DNA of 64,000 nt from Myxococcota bacterium (GTDB taxonomy: Bacteria > Myxococcota_A > UBA9160 > JAFDDA01): positions 2,944,001 through 3,008,000 of the forward strand of contig OZ245817.1 of the NCBI GenBank assembly GCA_965228475.1. Reading direction: 5' to 3'. Shown here piece by piece: positions 26,457-34,914 of the stretch. Below the pieces are notes generated by a model. The model was given only the letters and a program-made list of their open reading frames with translations, was not told the DNA's origin and searched no databases. Within the stretch, counting starts at the first letter, position 1; each line of letters starts with the position of its first letter. A program made the translations under genes and the position numbers.

Positions 26457-26482
26457 TGGTGGAGGCGGGGGAATCGAGCCCG
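26457..26482 (-). repeat. Degenerate copy of the tmRNA 3' end (att-like junction J1)
   Basis: TGGTGGAGGCGG-GGGAATCGAGCCCG vs ssrA TGGTGGAGGCGGCGGGAATCGAACCCG (1 deletion, 1 mismatch). Confidence 0.8.
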
Positions 26483-26591
26483 ACCTAGAGCGATCTTTTC
26501 TTAAATTTTTTCAGCTACTTGGAGCGCGATAGACCTGGCTCCGAGTTGGCTCCGCCAGCGGCTGATATACCCAGTCCGTATATTTTTCGGC

Positions 26592-27485
26592 ATGGATATA
26601 CGCGATCTGGAAGACTTCCTCGCTGTGCTGACTCACGGCAGCATCCTCGGTGCCGCCGACGAGCTGGGCGTCGCGCAGCCCGCTTTGAGCCGCCGGATCC
26701 GGGCGCTCGAGTCGTCGCTCGGCGTCCCCCTCCTGACCCGCGGCAGTCGCGGCGTGACCCCGACCGTCTACGGCCAGCTGCTCGAGCGGCACGCGCGGCT
26801 CGTCCTCCGCGACCGACAGCAGGCCGTCGATGAACTGCATGCGCTTCGGGACGGTGTCGAGGGGCACGCACGCATCGGGGTCGCCCCGGCGCTTTCCGGC
26901 CTTCTGCCGACCGTCATCGATCGCCTCTGCTCGGAGCGGCCGCGATTGACGTTCAGCGTCGTCGAGGGGACGTACCTCTCCCTCGCGGAAGACCTTCGAG
27001 CCGGCGAGATCGACGGGGCCTTCTCCTTGGTCCCACCCGGCGCAACGCACGAAGGGCTCGCCATTCGCACGCTCGCGCCGGATCCGCTCGTGATCGTCTG
27101 CAACCCGAAACACCCGCTGCTTCGCAAGAAGCGACTTCGGCTCTCCGACCTTCGGGACACTCCGTGGGCCCTCATGAGGGAGCCGCGCTCGTTGGTCGAT
27201 GCCTTCCTGGACCTCGCGGCGGCGCGCGGCCTCCAATCGCCCCGCATCTCGGTCCGGACGGACTCTCTCGACGTCCTGAAATCACTGGTCCTTCGCGGGA
27301 GCTTCCTCACCGCGCTCCCGCGCGGCGCCGTCCGGCCCGAGCTCGGCGAGAAACGCGCCGCCCTCCTCGAGACGGTCGAACGGCTCCCCAGGCCCTCTGC
27401 CGCGTTCCTTCATCGCCAGGAGATCCTCCCGCCCGCCGTCGGACTGCTCGTCGACGAGGTCTCCGCTTCGCTCGAGACCACCTGA
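26592..27485 (+). CDS. LysR-family regulator
   Basis: MDIRDLEDF..GSILGAADELGVAQPALSRRIRALE. Confidence 0.93.
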   Translation: MDIRDLEDFLAVLTHGSILGAADELGVAQPALSRRIRALESSLGVPLLTRGSRGVTPTVYGQLLERHARLVLRDRQQAVDELHALRDGVEGHARIGVAPALSGLLPTVIDRLCSERPRLTFSVVEGTYLSLAEDLRAGEIDGAFSLVPPGATHEGLAIRTLAPDPLVIVCNPKHPLLRKKRLRLSDLRDTPWALMREPRSLVDAFLDLAAARGLQSPRISVRTDSLDVLKSLVLRGSFLTALPRGAVRPELGEKRAALLETVERLPRPSAAFLHRQEILPPAVGLLVDEVSASLETT

Positions 27486-27509
27486 GGCCCCCGCCGAGCG
27501 GCCCGGTCG

Positions 27510-27528
27510 GTATGCCGGGGCTGCATAC
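27510..27528. promoter_or_regulatory. Putative LysR box GTATGC-N7-GCATAC
   Basis: Inverted repeat of the kind LysR regulators bind, upstream of the amidohydrolase. Confidence 0.45.
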
Positions 27529-27606
27529 GCAATGACACCCCGGGACATACGCCGGGTCTCGTGAGCGCCATATCCTCGCGCTCGTCATGAGGACGGGGAG
27601 AAGGCC

Positions 27607-28836
27607 ATGAAGACGACCCGAAGAGAGGTTCTCCAATCCACACTCTGGCTCGCCGCGGCCCTCGGCGCCGGCGCTCCGGGAGCGGTGGCGCGCGCGGCGA
27701 GCGGCCGGCCGAAGTTCAAGCGCATCGCCGTGGAAGAGTCGTTCATGACCCGGGAGGTCTTCGGCGGCTTCCTCGAGCTCCTGGCCGAGGATCCCGGATC
27801 GGAGCCGGGCTTCGCTCACTTCTTCGAGACGGCCCTCGGAAAGCCGGGGGAGCTCGTCGCGGGTCTGTCTTCGGTCGTGGGCGGCGAGAACACGGCCGAC
27901 CTCGTGAACTGGATCAGCCGAAGCGCCGCCGCGCTGGGCAGCGAGGCCTCCATCACGGCCCTCGCTCGCCAGTTCGACCTCGGCGCGGAGCGGCTGCGCA
28001 TCATGGACGAGACCGGCGTGGCCATGCAGGTCGTCTCGCTCGGGTCTCCCGGCGTCCAGGTGTTCGAAGCCGAGAAGGCGACGGCGCTCGCCCGCGCGGC
28101 GAACGACCAACTCGCGGCAGCGGTCCGCGCGAATCCCGATCGCCTGGCCGGTCTCGCGGCGATCGCGCCCCAGGCCCCGGCCGAGGCGGCCAAGGAGCTC
28201 GAGCGCGCGGTCACCGAGCTCGGCCTCTCGGGCGTGATGATCAACTCCCACACGAAGGGCGAGTACCTGGATGAGGAGAAGTTCCGGCCGATCCTCGCGA
28301 AGTGCGAGGCGCTCGGCGTCCCCCTCTACCTTCACCCCCGCACACCGTCCCCCGGAATGCTCGAGCCCTTCACCCGGTACCCAGGGCTCGCTGCGGCGAC
28401 CTTCGGGTTCAGCGTCGAGACGGCCCTCCATGCGCTGCGGCTCATCCTCGGCGGCGTCTTCGACGATTTCCCGGGCCTGACCGTCATCCTCGGCCACATG
28501 GGCGAGGGCCTGCCGTTCTGGATCGACCGGGTCGACAACCGCACCGCCTTCATCCAGACGGGCCCGGGCCCGAAGCCCCGGAAGCTCCGCAAGAAACCGA
28601 GCGACTACCTGCGCGAGAACTTCTACGTCGCGACGAGCGGGATGGACTTCGAACCCGCGCTCCTGCTGGCACACCGGGTCGTCGGCCCCGACCGGATCCT
28701 GTTCGCCATCGACTACCCGATGGAGGACGGCGCGCACCCCGTCCGCGTGATCGACGAGGCGCCGATCAGCGACGACGACAAGACCCAGATCTACCAGACC
28801 AACGCCGAGCGGGTCTTCGGGCTCTCGTCGGCCTGA
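27607..28836 (+). CDS. Amidohydrolase_2-family aromatic-acid decarboxylase (LigW-like) with Tat signal
   Basis: IAVEESF, GVMINSHT, YLHPR, GHMGEG, FAIDYP; N-terminal TRREVL plus hydrophobic stretch and ARA. Confidence 0.85.
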   Translation: MKTTRREVLQSTLWLAAALGAGAPGAVARAASGRPKFKRIAVEESFMTREVFGGFLELLAEDPGSEPGFAHFFETALGKPGELVAGLSSVVGGENTADLVNWISRSAAALGSEASITALARQFDLGAERLRIMDETGVAMQVVSLGSPGVQVFEAEKATALARAANDQLAAAVRANPDRLAGLAAIAPQAPAEAAKELERAVTELGLSGVMINSHTKGEYLDEEKFRPILAKCEALGVPLYLHPRTPSPGMLEPFTRYPGLAAATFGFSVETALHALRLILGGVFDDFPGLTVILGHMGEGLPFWIDRVDNRTAFIQTGPGPKPRKLRKKPSDYLRENFYVATSGMDFEPALLLAHRVVGPDRILFAIDYPMEDGAHPVRVIDEAPISDDDKTQIYQTNAERVFGLSSA

Positions 28837-28947
28837 CGCCTAGCGCCGTTCCGAAGCTGGCGCTGGGACTCGGCACGCAGCGGCCCTCAAACGCGGGCCG
28901 GTTGGCTCCACGCTCGCTCCGATCATAAGCATCTGATTCAATTGATA

Positions 28948-28976
28948 AAATTGGTGGAGGCGGCGGGAATCGAACC
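28948..28976 (-). repeat. Exact 29-bp copy of the tmRNA 3' end (att-like junction J2)
   Basis: AAATTGGTGGAGGCGGCGGGAATCGAACC identical to 31620-31648. Confidence 0.92.
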
Positions 28977-29087
28977 TGACGTCCCGGAGAAATTCATTAG
29001 CAAAAGCAGGCACTTGGATTCAGGCGACCTGGCTCCAAGCTGGCTCCGACGACCTCTGTTCGAAGGCTCCGAGCACAGCGTCAGCGA

Positions 29088-30188
29088 CTAGCCGTCGCCT
29101 GCGCGGACGGAAACGACGCGCCTTCCGAGCAGGTTGAGTTTGAAGCGACGGATGGTCTCCGGCTCGATGCGATGCCCGGTCTCGTCCTCGAAGGAGAGCG
29201 CATCCACGGGGCATTGCACGACGCAGGCACCGCAGCGGATGCAGCGCTCGTCGTGAGCGAGTTCGACCTTGCGTTCGGTCTCCCGCTTCTCGAAACAGGC
29301 CTCCGGACAGACCGCCCAGCACGAGTACACGCCCTTGCATCGCTCGAGGTCGAGTGCAATGCGCCAGTCGGCACCGTCGTGGCCCGCGGGCGCGCGGGTC
29401 GGTGAGGAGCCGTCGAAGTCGAAGGTGATCACGGCCGCCAGGCATGCCGCGGCCAGCGGAGCGGTGGCCAGCCCCAACCCCTCGGCGCCCAGGACCCACG
29501 CCACAAGGAACGCACCCAGCGTTCCCCCGCCCACGATGATCCAGCGCCTGGGCTCGGGCAGTCGGTCGTAGAAGCCGAAGGCACTGAGCGCCAGCGCCCA
29601 GACGAACACGACGGCCGCCAGCCCCCAGCCCGCCTGCACCAGCCAACCGATCGCGCCCGCGACGACGGACACCGGTGCAGCCCACGCAGCGGCCATCTCC
29701 AGGCGCTCGCCGAGCGAGAACCGGGCCCGTCGCATGGAATCGGTCTTCTTCTCGCCAGCGTCCAGGTAGGCAGGCAGATCCTCGGCATAGACAGGCCCGA
29801 AGCGCGCCTTCCAACCGCAGCGACGCGAAAGGTCGACGGCTCGCACACCCGTTGCCGCGAGCTGGGGAAGGATGACGCGGCGGTGCGTGACCCGGCCCTC
29901 GACTCCGCTGGTCTTGAGCGCCGTCACGACTTGGGGCGTAGAGAGCAGACCTCCCGCTGCAGCGCACCAGACGTTGATGCCTCCGCTCGGAGCCACGACG
30001 AGCCAGGCATCGACACCCCGCAACGCTCGCGTCACCCGGCGAACGGTCAGGTCGTAGTTCCCGGTGACGAGCACGGGACTCCCGGCCCCCGGAGAGCCGA
30101 TGGCGCGAAGCCCCGGCTCGGTCGGCCAGGGGAGCATCCGGAAAGCGGTCTGCAGCCCTTCTCGTATCAGCTCGGTGAGCGGCATCAT
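29088..30188 (-). CDS. Fused HgcAB-like protein (CdhD-type corrinoid domain + TM region + ferredoxin)
   Basis: SPVLVTGNYDLT, GINVWCAAAGG cap helix, ILPQLAATGV, FGPVYAEDLPAYL, TM helices, CKGVYSCWAVCP and CIRCGACVVQCP. Confidence 0.88.
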   Translation of the reverse strand: MMPLTELIREGLQTAFRMLPWPTEPGLRAIGSPGAGSPVLVTGNYDLTVRRVTRALRGVDAWLVVAPSGGINVWCAAAGGLLSTPQVVTALKTSGVEGRVTHRRVILPQLAATGVRAVDLSRRCGWKARFGPVYAEDLPAYLDAGEKKTDSMRRARFSLGERLEMAAAWAAPVSVVAGAIGWLVQAGWGLAAVVFVWALALSAFGFYDRLPEPRRWIIVGGGTLGAFLVAWVLGAEGLGLATAPLAAACLAAVITFDFDGSSPTRAPAGHDGADWRIALDLERCKGVYSCWAVCPEACFEKRETERKVELAHDERCIRCGACVVQCPVDALSFEDETGHRIEPETIRRFKLNLLGRRVVSVRAGDG

Positions 30189-30853
30189 GGGCCCGACTCG
30201 GTGCGCCGTCCGACGAGAACGCCCAGGCTTCCCCACAACCAACGGCGGTCGCTCTCGTCGATCAGCCCGCTGCTGCGGATCTCCGCGGCGAGGTCGTCCA
30301 GTGGCCGGCTCAGCGAACCTGCGAGGAGCCAGGCCACCAGCGCCTGCGGCCCTCGGAGCAGACGCAAGACGGTCCGGGGGAGGAGCGAGCTAGGGCGCAG
30401 CTCGTCGGCCACCACGAGAGCGCCTCCAGGCCGAAGGCGGTCCGCAGCCTGCTTCACGACGAAGGCGCGCTCGGCGCGGCCCATCTCCGAGAGCACGAAG
30501 CTCGCTGCGACCGCATCGAACCCCCGCACTGGAAGCGAATCGATCTCGGCGGCTGCGCGCTCGAGGAGGACCACCTGCCATCCCGGACCCTTGCGCAGGC
30601 GCTGTTCGCATTGTTCGAGCATCGCGGCGTTCGAGTCGAGGGCGGTGACTCGGGCTCCCCGAACCAGAAGGCGCTCCGTGAGAGCGCCTGTCCCGCATCC
30701 AATTTCCAGGACCTCGGCACCAGGTCGGGGCGCCGCCACTGCGGCCACCGCATCGAGGACGGCGTGCACTCGGCCGAGCGTCATGAGGTGCATCCCCGCG
30801 TCGTAGCGCTCGGGCGTCGACTCGAGCCATCGCATGAGGGCGAGAGAGCTCAC
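30185..30853 (-). CDS. Class I SAM methyltransferase, corrinoid-protein-associated (CpaM-like)
   Basis: LESTPERYDAGM, VLEIGCGTG, LRPGGALVVADE; 4-nt overlaps with both neighbours. Confidence 0.85.
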   Translation of the reverse strand: MSSLALMRWLESTPERYDAGMHLMTLGRVHAVLDAVAAVAAPRPGAEVLEIGCGTGALTERLLVRGARVTALDSNAAMLEQCEQRLRKGPGWQVVLLERAAAEIDSLPVRGFDAVAASFVLSEMGRAERAFVVKQAADRLRPGGALVVADELRPSSLLPRTVLRLLRGPQALVAWLLAGSLSRPLDDLAAEIRSSGLIDESDRRWLWGSLGVLVGRRTESGP

Positions 30854-31431
30854 GCTTCCAAGGCTCGCTCGGCGAGGCGTTCCATTTGACGACGAAGGGC
30901 CTCGCGATCGGGAAACGCGTCGGGCTCCAAGAAGAACTGAAAGAGCAGGCCGTCGACGGCTCCGATGAGCGAAGCCGCTGCGAGGTCGGGGTCGAAGTCA
31001 CCCGATAGCTCGCCTTCGCTCTGACCGGTTCGAAGTACGCCGGACAACTCGGCGCGAACCTCTCGAAAGAAGCGGCGAAAGCGCGCCGTGTCGCTGAGGC
31101 GGAAGTCGTAGAGCATCCGCCCGAGGGCGGCCCACTCGTCGAAGAGGGTCAGAAGGGAGTCGAGCAGGTGGCGCACCCGCTCCTTCGCAGAGCCCTCGGC
31201 GCGCAGGCACGCGCGGAAGACCGCGCGTTCGTTCTCGAGCGCACCGCGAACGAGATCGCGCAGCAGCGTGTCCTTGTCCGGGTAGTAGTGGTAGAGGGTC
31301 GAGCGCCCGATCCCGGCGGCCTTCGCCACGTGGGCGAGCCCCGTGCCGCGGACGCCGCGTCTGGAGAACGTGCGCCGCGCGGCCCTTCGGATCTCGTCTC
31401 GCTGGCTCTCGGGATCGACGATCTTGGGCAC
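30850..31431 (-). CDS. TetR-family regulator
   Basis: MPKIVD..GTGLAHVAKAAGIGRSTLYHYYPDKDTLL. Confidence 0.92.
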   Translation of the reverse strand: MPKIVDPESQRDEIRRAARRTFSRRGVRGTGLAHVAKAAGIGRSTLYHYYPDKDTLLRDLVRGALENERAVFRACLRAEGSAKERVRHLLDSLLTLFDEWAALGRMLYDFRLSDTARFRRFFREVRAELSGVLRTGQSEGELSGDFDPDLAAASLIGAVDGLLFQFFLEPDAFPDREALRRQMERLAERALEA

Positions 31432-31437
31432 TCGTCT

Positions 31438-31480
31438 TTTATAGACATGATTGTCGATAAAGACAACGATGTCGATAAAA
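31438..31480. promoter_or_regulatory. Tandem operator-like inverted repeats (GACA-N4-TGTC twice)
   Basis: TTTATAGACA-TGAT-TGTCGATAAA followed by AAAGACA-ACGA-TGTCGATAAA just upstream of tetR. Confidence 0.55.
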
Positions 31481-31623: not shown

Positions 31624-31989
31624 TGGTGGAGGCGGCGGGAATCGAACCCGCGTCCGCATGGGATCCACCGACAGCGTCTACGTGCGTAGTTCCCGATCGA
31701 TCTCGGCGGCGCCAGGCTCGGGGACGGGCGAAGCGCAACCCAGGCAGACTTGTGTCTCGCTCCCGGATGCGGCCTGCCAGCGGCCGGGAGCCAGCTTCCT
31801 GATGACGGCCGCGACCCGCTAGGAAGCGTCACGGACGGCCGTCGCTAGTTCCTAGGTGTTAGCTAGGCAGCGAGTGCGTAATTATCGTCGGCAATTATCA
31901 TTACCAACATGCCAGCTAGTTAACGAGGTGGCTGACGACCTCGGCACGCAGCTCCCAGCTTCCACCACCCGTCGAAGCCAGTCGCCCCC
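31624..31989 (-). ncRNA. ssrA: Transfer-messenger RNA
   Basis: 5' GGGGGCGACTGGCTTCGAC; 3' T-arm GGTTCGATTCC and CGCCTCCACCA; tag ORF ADDNYALAA* at 31892-31863. Confidence 0.97.
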
Positions 31990-31999
31990 TTGAACCCCA

Positions 32000-32027
32000 A
32001 GGGTAGGCACGATCCCGCCCCTGGCAA
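32000..32027 (-). promoter_or_regulatory. Putative ssrA sigma70 promoter
   Basis: TTGCCA-N16-TACCCT about 10 nt upstream of the mature 5' end. Confidence 0.45.
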
Positions 32028-32089
32028 CCCGCCTCCCAAAAAGCCTCAGTTCGGCGCGGCGTACTGGAGCGTCTTGCGGTTGTCGTGCT
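32019..32089. repeat. 71-bp direct repeat, copy 1
   Basis: 69/71 identical to 34844-34914. Confidence 0.92.
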
Positions 32090-32180
32090 GGGAACCAGCG
32101 ACGGTTGACCTTGCCGGCCAGTCTTTGAGATGGTGATGGGAGTGTCTAGAGGAACCACACGCTAACAAGGGAGCCTAGGG

Positions 32181-32756
32181 ATGCTGGTCCGACTGTACCT
32201 CGCTCTCGCATCAGCGCTCGCAGGCGCTACTGCGGAGGCCACCGACGTTGGCCAGATCTACGCAAAGTGCCACCAGTCCAGGAGCGGACATGTGTCGGTC
32301 GTGAGCTTTCAGCCATACGCTGAGGGGCCGGGCGCCCCAACGACTACCGGCTGGACGCTGGAGGGGATGAGCAACAATATCCACGCGTGCTACGCGCCCA
32401 GCTATCAAGAAGCGACGGACCTCGCCTACCAGATCTGCAGGGAACACCGACGCCAAGCCCTCGCACGGACTCAGAGGCGGGGGTTTGGAACGTACCTCGC
32501 GCTTGAGTGTTCGGTCAGGGGCTCGACTACCCACGCTGGCGAGGTCGGAGGCTGCGTTGTCGCTCACTCGCGAAAAGGCTTTCACGGGGTCAACTGCTAT
32601 CAAGGGCGCAGCGACTGGGCGAAACTCGCGGAAGCGGAGGCGCGCCAGGAGTGCGCTTCAGCGGCGATGGCCCAAGCCACGAAAGTAGACACGTCGTCTG
32701 CCAGCAAGGACTGCGGAACCCTCGACCTCTGGTTGCTGCCCCTAGACGTTCCCTAG
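32181..32756 (+). CDS. Secreted Cys-rich hypothetical protein
   Basis: AAGGGAG RBS, signal peptide, 8 Cys. Confidence 0.6.
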   Translation: MLVRLYLALASALAGATAEATDVGQIYAKCHQSRSGHVSVVSFQPYAEGPGAPTTTGWTLEGMSNNIHACYAPSYQEATDLAYQICREHRRQALARTQRRGFGTYLALECSVRGSTTHAGEVGGCVVAHSRKGFHGVNCYQGRSDWAKLAEAEARQECASAAMAQATKVDTSSASKDCGTLDLWLLPLDVP

Positions 32757-32981
32757 CGCGCCAATCGCACGTCTCCGCTGTCGAGACAGCTCGAACGCAT
32801 GACTTCGAGGGTTCTCATCAGACCAAGACTGTCGGCACCGGAGTCACGCCGAGGCAGAGAGAAGTTCGGCGGCGACGGTCGCCACTACTAGGAGGCTTGC
32901 CAGTAGCATCGCGCTACTCTCAGGAAAGACTGTGGCGGGCTGTCCGAGGAAGCGCAGCCCTAGCTGCGAACAGGAGAGTAG

Positions 32982-34157
32982 GTGGCCAGAGGCAAGAACA
33001 AGGCTGCTCGCGATTCGGTACTTCGCTTTACCAATCTACGGCTGGAAAACTGGAAGAACTTCACATCAATCGATGTTGAACTCCAACGTCGCGTCTTTCT
33101 GGTCGGGCCCAACGCATCCGGAAAATCGAATCTATTCGACGCACTTCGCTTCCTCAGAGATGTCGCTTCCGTCGGCGGAGGACTCGCTAAGGCAGTCGAG
33201 CACAGAGGTGGAATCAGCTCAATACGCTCGCTCTCAGCTCGCAGGTACTCGGATATCGTGGTTGTTGCTGAGCTCTCGAGCGCACGAGGTGACGAACACT
33301 GGAAGTACGAACTGGCTCTCACCCAAGACAACCAGCGCAGGCCAAGAGTCAAGCGAGAGATCGTAACAAAGGGCCAACGGGTCTTACTCAAGCGACCTGA
33401 CTCAGACGACGACAACGACTCAGAAAGACTAACGCAGACCCACCTGGAACAGGTTCAAGTAAACAAGGCCTTCCGTGATCTCGGCTCGTTTTTTTCCTCT
33501 ATCCAATACCTCCACATCGTTCCGCAACTAGTACGGGAACCTGACAGGTCGGTTGGAAAGACGGATGACCCCTTCGGAGGGGACTTCTTGGAGCAGGTTG
33601 CACGAACACCGGCGCGCTCACAAGAAGCGCGCCTTCGTCGAATTGCAGATGCGTTGAAGGTAGCCGTTCCGCAACTGAGCAAGCTGGAACTCTGGAAGGA
33701 CGAGGCCGGCGTTCCTCACTTGCGAGGTCGATATCAGCACTGGCGCCCGCAGGGCGCGTGGCAAGGAGAGGACCAGTTCTCGGACGGGACCTTGCGCCTT
33801 ATGGGGCTTCTCTGGGCCGCGCAGGGAGGGCGAGGACCGCTGCTCCTTGAGGAGCCCGAGCTCTCTCTCCATCCGGGTGTCGTCCGCTACCTACCCCAAC
33901 TGTTCGCGCGACTCCAGCGCAAGAGCGGACGGCAGCTCTTCATCAGCAGCCATTCCCCGGAGCTCTTCCTAGACCCTGGGATTGGGCTTGACGAGGTACT
34001 CTTGTTGTCTCCCCTCGCAGAGGGAACCATCGTCAACACGGCTTCGACCGTCAGCGAGGTGAAAGACCTGCTGGAGGGCGGCGCGAGCCTTGCCGACGTA
34101 CTCATGCCGATCACGAGACCTAGGCGAGCCGATCAACTCGTACTGTTCGACCTCTAG
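32982..34157 (+). CDS. ABC-type (AAA_21/AAA_15-like) ATPase
   Basis: Walker A GPNASGKS, signature FSDGTLR, Walker B LLLEEPE, H-loop SSHSP. Confidence 0.9.
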   Translation: MARGKNKAARDSVLRFTNLRLENWKNFTSIDVELQRRVFLVGPNASGKSNLFDALRFLRDVASVGGGLAKAVEHRGGISSIRSLSARRYSDIVVVAELSSARGDEHWKYELALTQDNQRRPRVKREIVTKGQRVLLKRPDSDDDNDSERLTQTHLEQVQVNKAFRDLGSFFSSIQYLHIVPQLVREPDRSVGKTDDPFGGDFLEQVARTPARSQEARLRRIADALKVAVPQLSKLELWKDEAGVPHLRGRYQHWRPQGAWQGEDQFSDGTLRLMGLLWAAQGGRGPLLLEEPELSLHPGVVRYLPQLFARLQRKSGRQLFISSHSPELFLDPGIGLDEVLLLSPLAEGTIVNTASTVSEVKDLLEGGASLADVLMPITRPRRADQLVLFDL

Positions 34158-34168
34158 GACCCCCGAGA

Positions 34169-34774
34169 GTGCCCAGGAAGGTCGTGAATGCAGCAGTTGA
34201 AGGTGTCGTAGACGAGGCTGTGGCAAGCCGCCTAATCGCTGATGCCGGCGGTGAGATGGGCCAAGTCTTCGGAAAGTGTGGACGACCGGCGGTAGTCGAC
34301 AAGGTCCTTTCCTACAATAGTGCAGCGAGGCACCGACCCTGGTTCATCCTAATGGACCTTGATCGCGATGAGTGCGCACCCTCTCTCCTAGCAGACTGCC
34401 TGCCACCAGAAAACCACGCACGCGGCCTGTGTTTCCGCATCGCGGTTCGAGAGGTTGAGTCATGGCTGCTCGCCGACCGAGACACGATCGCGCGCTACCT
34501 CTCAGTGAGTAGGGACTTGATACCACCTGACCCCGAGTCACTTGCGGACCCCAAGGCCACCCTGGTAGCTCTCGCGAGCAGGTCTCGGGCACGTACGGTC
34601 AAGGACGACATGGTACCAACCCCTGCGTCCGGGCGGCGAGTAGGACGGCTATACGTCGCCAGGCTGGTCGAATTCGTCCGAGACAAGTGGGACCTAACAG
34701 CAGCGTCGAAGGGCAGCCAAAGCCTTCGCCAATGTCGCCGACGTCTCCGCGAACTAGTTCTATCGCCTCCGTGA
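34169..34774 (+). CDS. TOPRIM-like putative nuclease (DUF4276-like)
   Basis: VEGVVDE, DLD (DxD), EVESWLLAD, DPK; 11 nt after the ATPase. Confidence 0.78.
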   Translation: MPRKVVNAAVEGVVDEAVASRLIADAGGEMGQVFGKCGRPAVVDKVLSYNSAARHRPWFILMDLDRDECAPSLLADCLPPENHARGLCFRIAVREVESWLLADRDTIARYLSVSRDLIPPDPESLADPKATLVALASRSRARTVKDDMVPTPASGRRVGRLYVARLVEFVRDKWDLTAASKGSQSLRQCRRRLRELVLSPP

Positions 34775-34843
34775 AACCCGAGAGCTAGCTGCCCAGTCTC
34801 TGGTGCTTCGGCTGTGCCAGGCTCGGGGACGAGCGCAGCGAAA

Positions 34844-34914
34844 CCCTGGCAACCCGCCTCCCAAAAAGCCTCACTCCGGCGCGGCGTACTGGAGCGTCTT
34901 GCGGTTGTCGTGCT
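34844..34914. repeat. 71-bp direct repeat, copy 2 (includes the 3' end of the CARDB-like gene)
   Basis: Matches 32019-32089. Confidence 0.92.

Follow-up and report, generated by a model that had tools for sequence, protein, structure and literature searches.

The closest described systems to the operon analysed here are the mercury methylation proteins HgcA and HgcB and the fused HgcAB proteins. HgcAB takes a methyl group directly from S-adenosylmethionine (SAM) onto Co(I), with Co-thiolate ligation (PMC11588087), and Cys73 and the C-terminal cysteines (Cys94/95) of HgcB matter for mercury (PMC7305189). The consensus protocol for hgcA warns of fused HgcAB proteins and requires the motif N[VI]WC[AS][AGS]GK (bioRxiv 2022.03.14.484253). 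NCBI curates the HgcAB-like fusion protein as NF043039 and the 'corrinoid protein-associated methyltransferase CpaM' as NF043040, and hence neither the family nor the pairing is new. Here we analysed a 64,000-nucleotide stretch of the genome of a Myxococcota bacterium (GCA_965228475.1, contig OZ245817.1, positions 2,944,001 to 3,008,000), referred to as the window. Within it, a three-gene operon encodes an HgcAB-like fusion protein, CpaM and a TetR-family regulator. An earlier reading of the window (the original prediction) had singled out this operon. What is new here are the counts of pairing and fusion, the conserved operator, and the association between the loss of a cluster cysteine and a C-terminal tail.

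Family membership and predicted structure of the fusion protein

The operon comprises the following genes, with lengths in amino acids (aa):
29088..30188, minus strand: HgcAB-like fusion protein, 366 aa, with a corrinoid-binding domain, membrane helices, a dicluster ferredoxin and a tail
30185..30853, minus strand: CpaM, a class I SAM methyltransferase of 222 aa, weakly UbiE/MenG-like (NF043040)
30850..31431, minus strand: TetR-family regulator, 193 aa, without a conserved cysteine (Pfam, alignment)

The overlaps between the three genes (ATGA and GTGA) are 4 nt each, and the coordinates, lengths and overlaps from which translational coupling had been proposed were all recovered from the sequence. 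The GC content of the genes (0.68–0.70) is host-like (0.705). Pfam assigns CdhD and Fer4 domains to the 366-aa protein, a class I methyltransferase domain to the 222-aa protein and a TetR domain to the 193-aa protein. The 366-aa protein passes the NCBIfam model NF043039 (388.2 bits, cut-off 285) and fails those of HgcA (NF040863; 166.4 bits, cut-off 275) and HgcB (NF040864; 49.5 bits, cut-off 99). The 222-aa protein passes NF043040 (233.2 bits, cut-off 180), a model of the type hypoth_equivalog, and therefore no function is assigned to the CpaM family. The 366-aa protein is a genuine, intact and ordinary member of a catalogued, little-studied two-gene family with optional TetR control.

The fusion protein contains the following domains and motifs:
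residues about 1–145: corrinoid-binding domain
residues 159–261: four predicted membrane helices (AlphaFold model)
residues 276–335: dicluster ferredoxin
29949..29981, minus strand: cap-helix motif GINVWCAAAGG, with Cys75 as the predicted cobalt ligand; the 'GK' of HgcA is absent
29304..29339, minus strand: cluster motif 1, CKGVYSCWAVCP, with Val287 replacing the second cysteine; predicted [3Fe-4S] or open-site [4Fe-4S] cluster
29208..29243, minus strand: cluster motif 2, CIRCGACVVQCP, an intact CxxCxxCxxxCP
29118..29171, minus strand: conserved C-terminal tail, residues 340–357, which co-occurs with the loss of the cysteine

The corrinoid domain, transmembrane helices and C-terminal ferredoxin described in the original prediction are confirmed by Pfam and by the AlphaFold model (mean predicted local distance difference test score (pLDDT) 91.7), which shows the corrinoid domain, four long helices at residues 159–261, the ferredoxin and a short tail helix. 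The cap helix, the incomplete first and the complete second cluster motif are likewise present as described, and the last cysteine is residue 326, so that the C-terminal cysteine pair of HgcB is absent. The protein is predicted to bind vitamin B12 and iron–sulfur clusters. The cap-helix residues G70, N72, W74, C75, A76 and G79 are invariant in all 60 aligned proteins. The modelled corrinoid domain superimposes on 2h9a_A, a corrinoid/iron–sulfur protein (CFeSP) structure, with a Z-score of 19.1 and a root-mean-square deviation of 1.5 over 123 aligned residues. This corrinoid-binding fold is the only domain in common with the CFeSP large subunit (AcsC/CdhE), and CFeSP subunits were not found in the host genome, where the fusion gene is the only match to the CdhD family (PF03599). 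A structure search with the membrane domain matched only generic helical bundles (Z under 9), and a sequence search found no solved HgcA-type structure.

The fusion protein and HgcA/HgcB have homologous corrinoid, membrane and ferredoxin domains and a predicted Co-thiolate, and SAM is the likely donor in both. In contrast to HgcA/HgcB, the window protein is a single chain with NVWCAAAG in place of NVWCAAGK and CIRCGA in place of C(M/I)ECGA, has no cysteines beyond the clusters, one of whose motifs is incomplete, and is accompanied by a dedicated methyltransferase, CpaM. Four membrane helices are predicted, whereas HgcA is described with five (PMC7305189). The domain order and the cap-helix cysteine are those of the 'fused HgcAB' proteins (PMC4646819, PMC5893877, bioRxiv 2022.11.21.517362), from which at large the window protein differs as a subtype that lacks the second cysteine of motif 1, carries the tail, has its own TetR and operator, and occurs in a host with heme-copper oxidase-family proteins.

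To place the protein relative to HgcA, two quick trees were built from the corrinoid domain (131 and 67 rows, subsets of 228 pieces; 155 columns), with most of the HgcA rows obtained through a single query. The HgcA proteins with the GK motif form one branch without the window protein (Shimodaira–Hasegawa-like approximate likelihood ratio test 100 in the 131-row and 88 in the 67-row tree). HgcA is nested inside the CpaM family in the 131-row tree (support 91, unstarred), whereas it is not in the 67-row tree. Thus, both the profile search and the phylogeny, two of the checks that had been suggested, set the window protein apart from canonical HgcA. True HgcA-HgcB fusions (P0114, P0140) have the GK motif, score over the HgcA cut-off and lie inside the HgcA branch, so that fusion in itself does not distinguish the two families. 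The phylum sample that contains the HgcAB-like operon also contains canonical hgcA with the GK motif (L015, L143).

The operon had also been proposed as a source of false positives in hgcA surveys. The motif N[VI]WC[AS][AGS]GK is absent from the window protein, and the high-stringency filter already rejects it; screens that use bit scores only might count it. For mercury surveys, the HgcAB-like fusion is thus a known decoy, already removed by motif filters. That fused HgcAB had not been shown to methylate mercury agrees with the published tests, in which the carriers Pyrococcus furiosus and Methanococcoides methylutens are reported to have made no methylmercury (PMC4646819, PMC5893877).

The missing cysteine is a trait of a subfamily and not decay, as judged from the distribution of the residue and the tail. 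Among 128 proteins other than HgcA that have two cluster motifs, a set that includes close kin, the second cysteine of motif 1 is absent from 70, and 68 of these carry the tail; the cysteine is kept in the other 58, of which four are tailed. Valine occupies the position in 39 of the 70 proteins that lack the cysteine. A first pattern had suggested a perfect rule linking cysteine loss and tail, which was rejected when a profile found the four tailed proteins with the cysteine and two without both cysteine and tail. The ferredoxin shares with 7Fe ([3Fe-4S] plus [4Fe-4S]) ferredoxins a motif whose second cysteine position is taken by another residue, and substitutions of this kind lead to [3Fe-4S] clusters in the ferredoxins that have been studied (PMC6237146). 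A hand-picked sample of 24 loci from 23 incomplete and related genomes, one of which is in both groups, had heme-copper oxidase-family genes in 12 of the 13 tailed-type hosts vs 4 of the 11 intact-type hosts (at E<1e-100, 10 and 2). The Pfam family also takes in NO reductases, and the association of cysteine loss with oxidase-bearing hosts is suggestive only. It is likely that the missing cysteine and the tail give a [3Fe-4S]/[4Fe-4S] form suited to oxygen-respiring hosts.

Pairing with CpaM and the TetR operator

The pairing of the fusion gene with cpaM is near-obligate. In the best 80 of the 135 genome loci, cpaM lies directly upstream of the HgcAB-like gene in 75, as it does in the window, where we found no difference from the curated family; four of the misses are at contig edges and one is real. 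Thirteen of the 41 order-level genomes pass NF043039 and 12 pass NF043040; all 12 are within the 13, and the remaining genome has a cpaM fragment at its contig edge. NF043039 is passed by 22 of 201 genomes in the phylum sample, and cpaM is upstream in all 15 loci fetched from it, some of whose genomes had already been counted among the other loci. The co-conservation of methyltransferase and fusion, on which the original prediction had staked itself, is supported. Among the literature matches listed, we found no published work on CpaM, the tailed subtype or the operator, and the name 'CpaM' appeared only in unrelated uses.

A CpaM domain and the corrinoid protein are joined in one chain in 15 of the best 150 representatives, and 8 of 26 representatives picked by length pass both the NF043039 and the NF043040 cut-offs. 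The natural fusions at genomic loci comprise a triple fusion of 589 aa and six fusions of 540 aa that lack the ferredoxin. An in-frame CpaM fusion in close relatives was considered and rejected, since the long upstream frames are GC-rich alternative frames; real fusions occur in distant relatives only. The complex of CpaM and the fusion protein was predicted with a score of 0.58, vs 0.01 for the best control, which the prediction tool rates as weak support. Of 157 solved complexes, 116 attained the mark for such scores, as did 2 of 215 mismatches, but those at or below 0.60 include only 18 of the 157 and both mismatches. The runs had at least 49% of contacts in common, and the pLDDT of the partners was at least 78.

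The six 540-aa fusions (L085, L089, L093–L096) are mostly from Anaerolineales; a divergent tetR and a DsbA-like thioredoxin lie ahead of them, and a gene of the F420H2-dependent quinone reductase family and an ABC exporter come after. One branch of NF043039 proteins (P0060, P0067, P0078, P0083, P0104) has an additional hydrophobic N-terminal part of 120–185 aa with no Pfam match at E 1e-5, and several of its members have a divergent cap helix. In a genome of the same genus (L098:8358-8501, G001:C9), only an N-terminal HgcAB-like fragment of about 48 aa is present, which is 54% identical.

No conserved fourth gene was found among the flanking open reading frames (ORFs), of which 90 of the 99 picked by crude ORF calling were scanned. 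The recurring neighbours are lipid and acyl-CoA enzymes, or are restricted to one clade.

A related tetR precedes cpaM in 33 of the 67 loci with sufficient upstream DNA, and more distant TetR types precede it in Anaerolineales and two other loci. The self-contained module that had been predicted, of regulator, SAM methyltransferase and corrinoid/Fe-S membrane protein, is supported, with TetR as an optional part. The palindrome TTTCGACA-N4-TGTCGAAA is located upstream of 29 of 34 tetR genes, and the five misses are divergent regulators. The strict core of the operator is present in 22 of 34 regions upstream of tetR vs 1 of 33 before a cpaM without tetR. In the window, two sites are predicted:
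31439..31460: predicted TetR operator 1, with the family consensus; score 30.1, the best site of the genome
31457..31478: tandem second operator (predicted) that overlaps a sigma-70-like -35 box; score 20.3, barely over background

The matrix was built excluding the window's own sites and scanned over the 5-Mb genome, in which these sites rank first and second and the best site elsewhere scores 19.8. A sigma-70-like promoter (9 of 12 matches) lies under the operators. We infer that TetR may regulate its own operon through the conserved palindrome. A wider TetR regulon in the host was considered and rejected, as no site outside the operon exceeds 19.8 (training sites 18.1–43.4) and the highest-scoring of these outside sites show no obvious connection. 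The TetR alignment contains no conserved cysteine, which argues against a thiol-type metal sensor, and the conserved histidines are confined to the DNA-binding part. Searches among solved relatives gave only generic matches for the TetR ligand and for the substrate of CpaM.

The ssrA cassette

Genomic islands at ssrA 3' ends, including integrase-free tandem accretions, are known. The operon of the window lies in a setting of this kind, and the surrounding features are as follows:
31624..31989, minus strand: tmRNA (ssrA), tag ADDNYALAA, whose 3' end bounds the cassette
28952..28976, minus strand: exact 25-nt duplicate of the ssrA 3' end, att-like
28990..29055: 'arm' at the cassette end, common to the second cassette and in part to a 7.3-kb element elsewhere in the genome
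26457..26480, minus strand: third, degenerate copy of the ssrA 3' end, which bounds a second integrase-free cassette
26592-27485: lysR, cargo of the second cassette
27607-28836: amidohydrolase, cargo of the second cassette

The 25-nt ssrA 3' end has two matches in the window, with none expected from 100 shuffles. The 2.65 kb between the ssrA copies are taken up by the three genes and about 300 nt of flank, so that the genes fill one ssrA cassette, as had been noted. The second cassette (26457-28951) has similar ends, and the two form a tandem array of small regulator-plus-enzyme units. The duplicated 3' end and the tandem cassettes with common end sequences resemble those of ssrA islands, whereas the cassettes here are only 2.5–2.7 kb each, contain cargo only and have no tyrosine recombinase nearby. 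No integrase is encoded in the HgcAB-like cassette, and the four PF00589 tyrosine recombinases of the genome lie elsewhere (serine recombinases were not searched).

The description of the operon as mobile is only partly upheld. The duplicated ssrA 3' end speaks for it; against it, the cassette has no integrase, no excision was seen and no relative of the operon was found at ssrA. In runs X1 and X2, possibly the source samples, one contig carries the cassette together with its left flank, both at the same depth, and no joint was found, with the proviso that contigs drop rare variants. A tmRNA was found in none of 80 related loci or 16 further regions. The stretches fetched at ssrA from four relatives, in two cases reaching only to a contig edge near the gene, contain no homologue of the operon. 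The ssrA location is particular to the host genome, and ssrA is not part of the system. It is likely that the cassette entered ssrA once, with the integrase supplied in trans, and is now fixed.

Directly upstream of ssrA, at 32019-34914, the two copies of a 71-nt direct repeat (97% identical) enclose a low-GC insert of 2.85 kb that encodes an AAA_21 ATPase and a weak DUF4276 match. The contig depth of the insert is about 60% of that of the flank in runs X1 and X2, and therefore the population likely varies. A 44-nt piece of the tmRNA interior (31703-31746) recurs with 86% identity at 34808-34851, beside the second 71-nt repeat. Run X1 contains a second contig with nine differences over 31628-31690, in the 3' part of the tmRNA, at about a quarter of the depth, which is possibly another ssrA allele or from a related organism. 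Elsewhere in the genome, the lower-GC 7.3-kb element (G000:C1:4777596-4784938, L097) has degenerate ssrA-3'-like flanking sites and the arm motif in common with the cassettes. Its ORFs resemble by eye a prokaryotic ubiquitin-type system and a sigma-factor-like protein, and none of the PF00589 matches of the genome lies inside it. A tyrosine recombinase at G000:C1:4384407-4385012 looks by eye like an integron integrase. The same-genus genome G001 has several ssrA-3'-like sites on other contigs.

Possible roles of the pair

The operon could, in the reading that we tentatively prefer at a little below an even chance, be a membrane-bound methyl relay, which passes methyl groups from SAM to cobalamin and on to a probably lipophilic, non-mercury acceptor, under its own TetR. 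The ferredoxin domain would reduce the Cys75-bound cobalamin to Co(I), and CpaM would dock on the fusion protein and present SAM, resulting in methyl-Co(III). A radical or carbanion equivalent of the methyl group would then be handed to an electrophilic acceptor at the membrane domain with its four helices; a non-mercury acceptor is proposed because the mercury-handling cysteines of HgcB are absent. Finally, the acceptor or a relative of it would release TetR from the operator. The host encodes MetH and has five B12-binding domains over the cut-off, and three matches to the heme-copper oxidase family. No RNA run was among the listed runs that contain the sequence, and the small-share runs X4 and X5 gave no evidence on the habitat.

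Several results weigh against the methyl relay. CobS was not found in the host genome (96% complete), so that cobalamin would have to be salvaged. Locus L034 has 6 kb of upstream DNA without cpaM, the score of the predicted complex is weak and no interface was obtained, and the flanking genes are not conserved and do not indicate an acceptor. In the cofactor-free AlphaFold model, the cap-helix region is not helical (block pLDDT 70). The potential of a [3Fe-4S] cluster (PMC6237146) is usually too positive for it to generate Co(I) on its own. Furthermore, canonical HgcAB works without a separate methyltransferase (PMC11588087), and thus loading cobalt need not be the task of CpaM, which could have a small molecule as its substrate instead. 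The fused HgcAB of P. furiosus is AAL80853, which we take with considerable confidence, by accession numbering, to be PF0729. Copper RNA-seq of P. furiosus reports the induction of PF0728, a SAM methyltransferase, with a log2 fold change of 5.0 (about 32-fold) and of PF0729 ('Ferredoxin') with 3.4 (about 11-fold), preceded by the copper chaperone PF0727 with 6.7 (PMC7830388). The copper induction of this probable pair suggests that, for at least one member of the family, metal or redox stress is involved. It also tempers the earlier suggestion that TetR control indicates an organic ligand rather than mercury, for which the lack of a conserved cysteine speaks.

If CpaM acts on a small molecule, the Co(I) corrinoid/Fe-S protein may be a reductase or dehalogenase, and CpaM an ordinary methyltransferase whose work at the membrane would be to cap the product of the reduction, such as a thiol, hydroquinone, phenol or chalcogenide. 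Besides the independence of HgcAB from a methyltransferase, this rather unlikely scheme draws on the reported dehalogenation of halomethanes, including the dechlorination of CCl4, by heterologous HgcAB (bioRxiv 10.64898/2026.04.26.720869), on quinone methyltransferases as the best named non-CpaM matches of CpaM, far under their cut-offs, and on the gene of the F420H2-dependent quinone reductase family downstream of the pair in six related loci. However, these neighbours belong to one small clade, no conserved transporter or catabolic gene is nearby, and the cysteine ligand that marks the methyl-transfer chemistry of HgcA is invariant. The pair might also methylate or reduce a soft metal(loid) other than mercury or guard against copper-driven redox damage, for which the copper response speaks, as does the frequent location of arsenic genes near canonical hgcAB. 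We nevertheless consider a role in metal(loid) stress decidedly unlikely. The 28-kb P. furiosus region has many induced neighbours, and the rise of PF0728-PF0729 could be due to read-through from the copZ copper promoter; the fused gene of P. furiosus is thought to be laterally acquired (PMC4646819). In addition, none of the 90 flanking ORFs matches a metal-resistance family, a crude scan found the P-type ATPase motif in 1 of 95 loci, and TetR has the residue pattern described above.

CpaM might instead rescue oxidised cobalamin, like the SAM domain of methionine synthase, with the corrinoid protein demethylating a methylated substrate. SAM-dependent reductive reactivation is general for cobalamin methyltransferases (PMC11588087 and established knowledge), and the heme-copper oxidase-family proteins of the host make the oxidation of cobalamin likely. 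A reactivase is nonetheless very unlikely, with no conserved substrate-specific methyltransferase or folate-acceptor gene nearby and with Dehalococcoidia and other anaerobic lineages showing equally tight pairing. It is highly improbable that the protein truly methylates mercury and that cultures failed to reveal the activity. The cap helix retains its cysteine, and a negative culture is no proof of an inactive enzyme, as Podar et al. point out (PMC4646819), but the protein fails both Hgc models and the GK and C(M/I)ECGA motifs, lies outside the HgcA branch in both trees, and has relatives in the two carriers reported without methylmercury (PMC4646819, PMC5893877).

A more specific form of the methyl relay, which we consider unlikely, is that the tailed subtype without the cysteine is an oxygen-adapted membrane B12 methyltransferase that acts on a lipid, quinone or lipophilic toxin via methyl-cobalamin. 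We know of no characterised example of such a methyltransferase acting on these substrates in this way.

The CpaM pair is common, and the value of this copy is practical. It lies in the compact three-gene unit of 2.65 kb, whose predicted repressor and clearly delimited operator would permit a screen for inducers. A first physiological lead comes from the copper induction in P. furiosus, an organism that is cultured and genetically tractable. The subtype with the changed cluster suggests that such B12 chemistry runs in oxygen-respiring bacteria. If the oxygen-adapted B12 methyltransferase exists, the TetR-operator pair would be a biosensor that names the substrate. By homology, it would also be a pointer to the native role of the HgcAB lineage, in which the mercury methylases would be a derived branch that lost CpaM.

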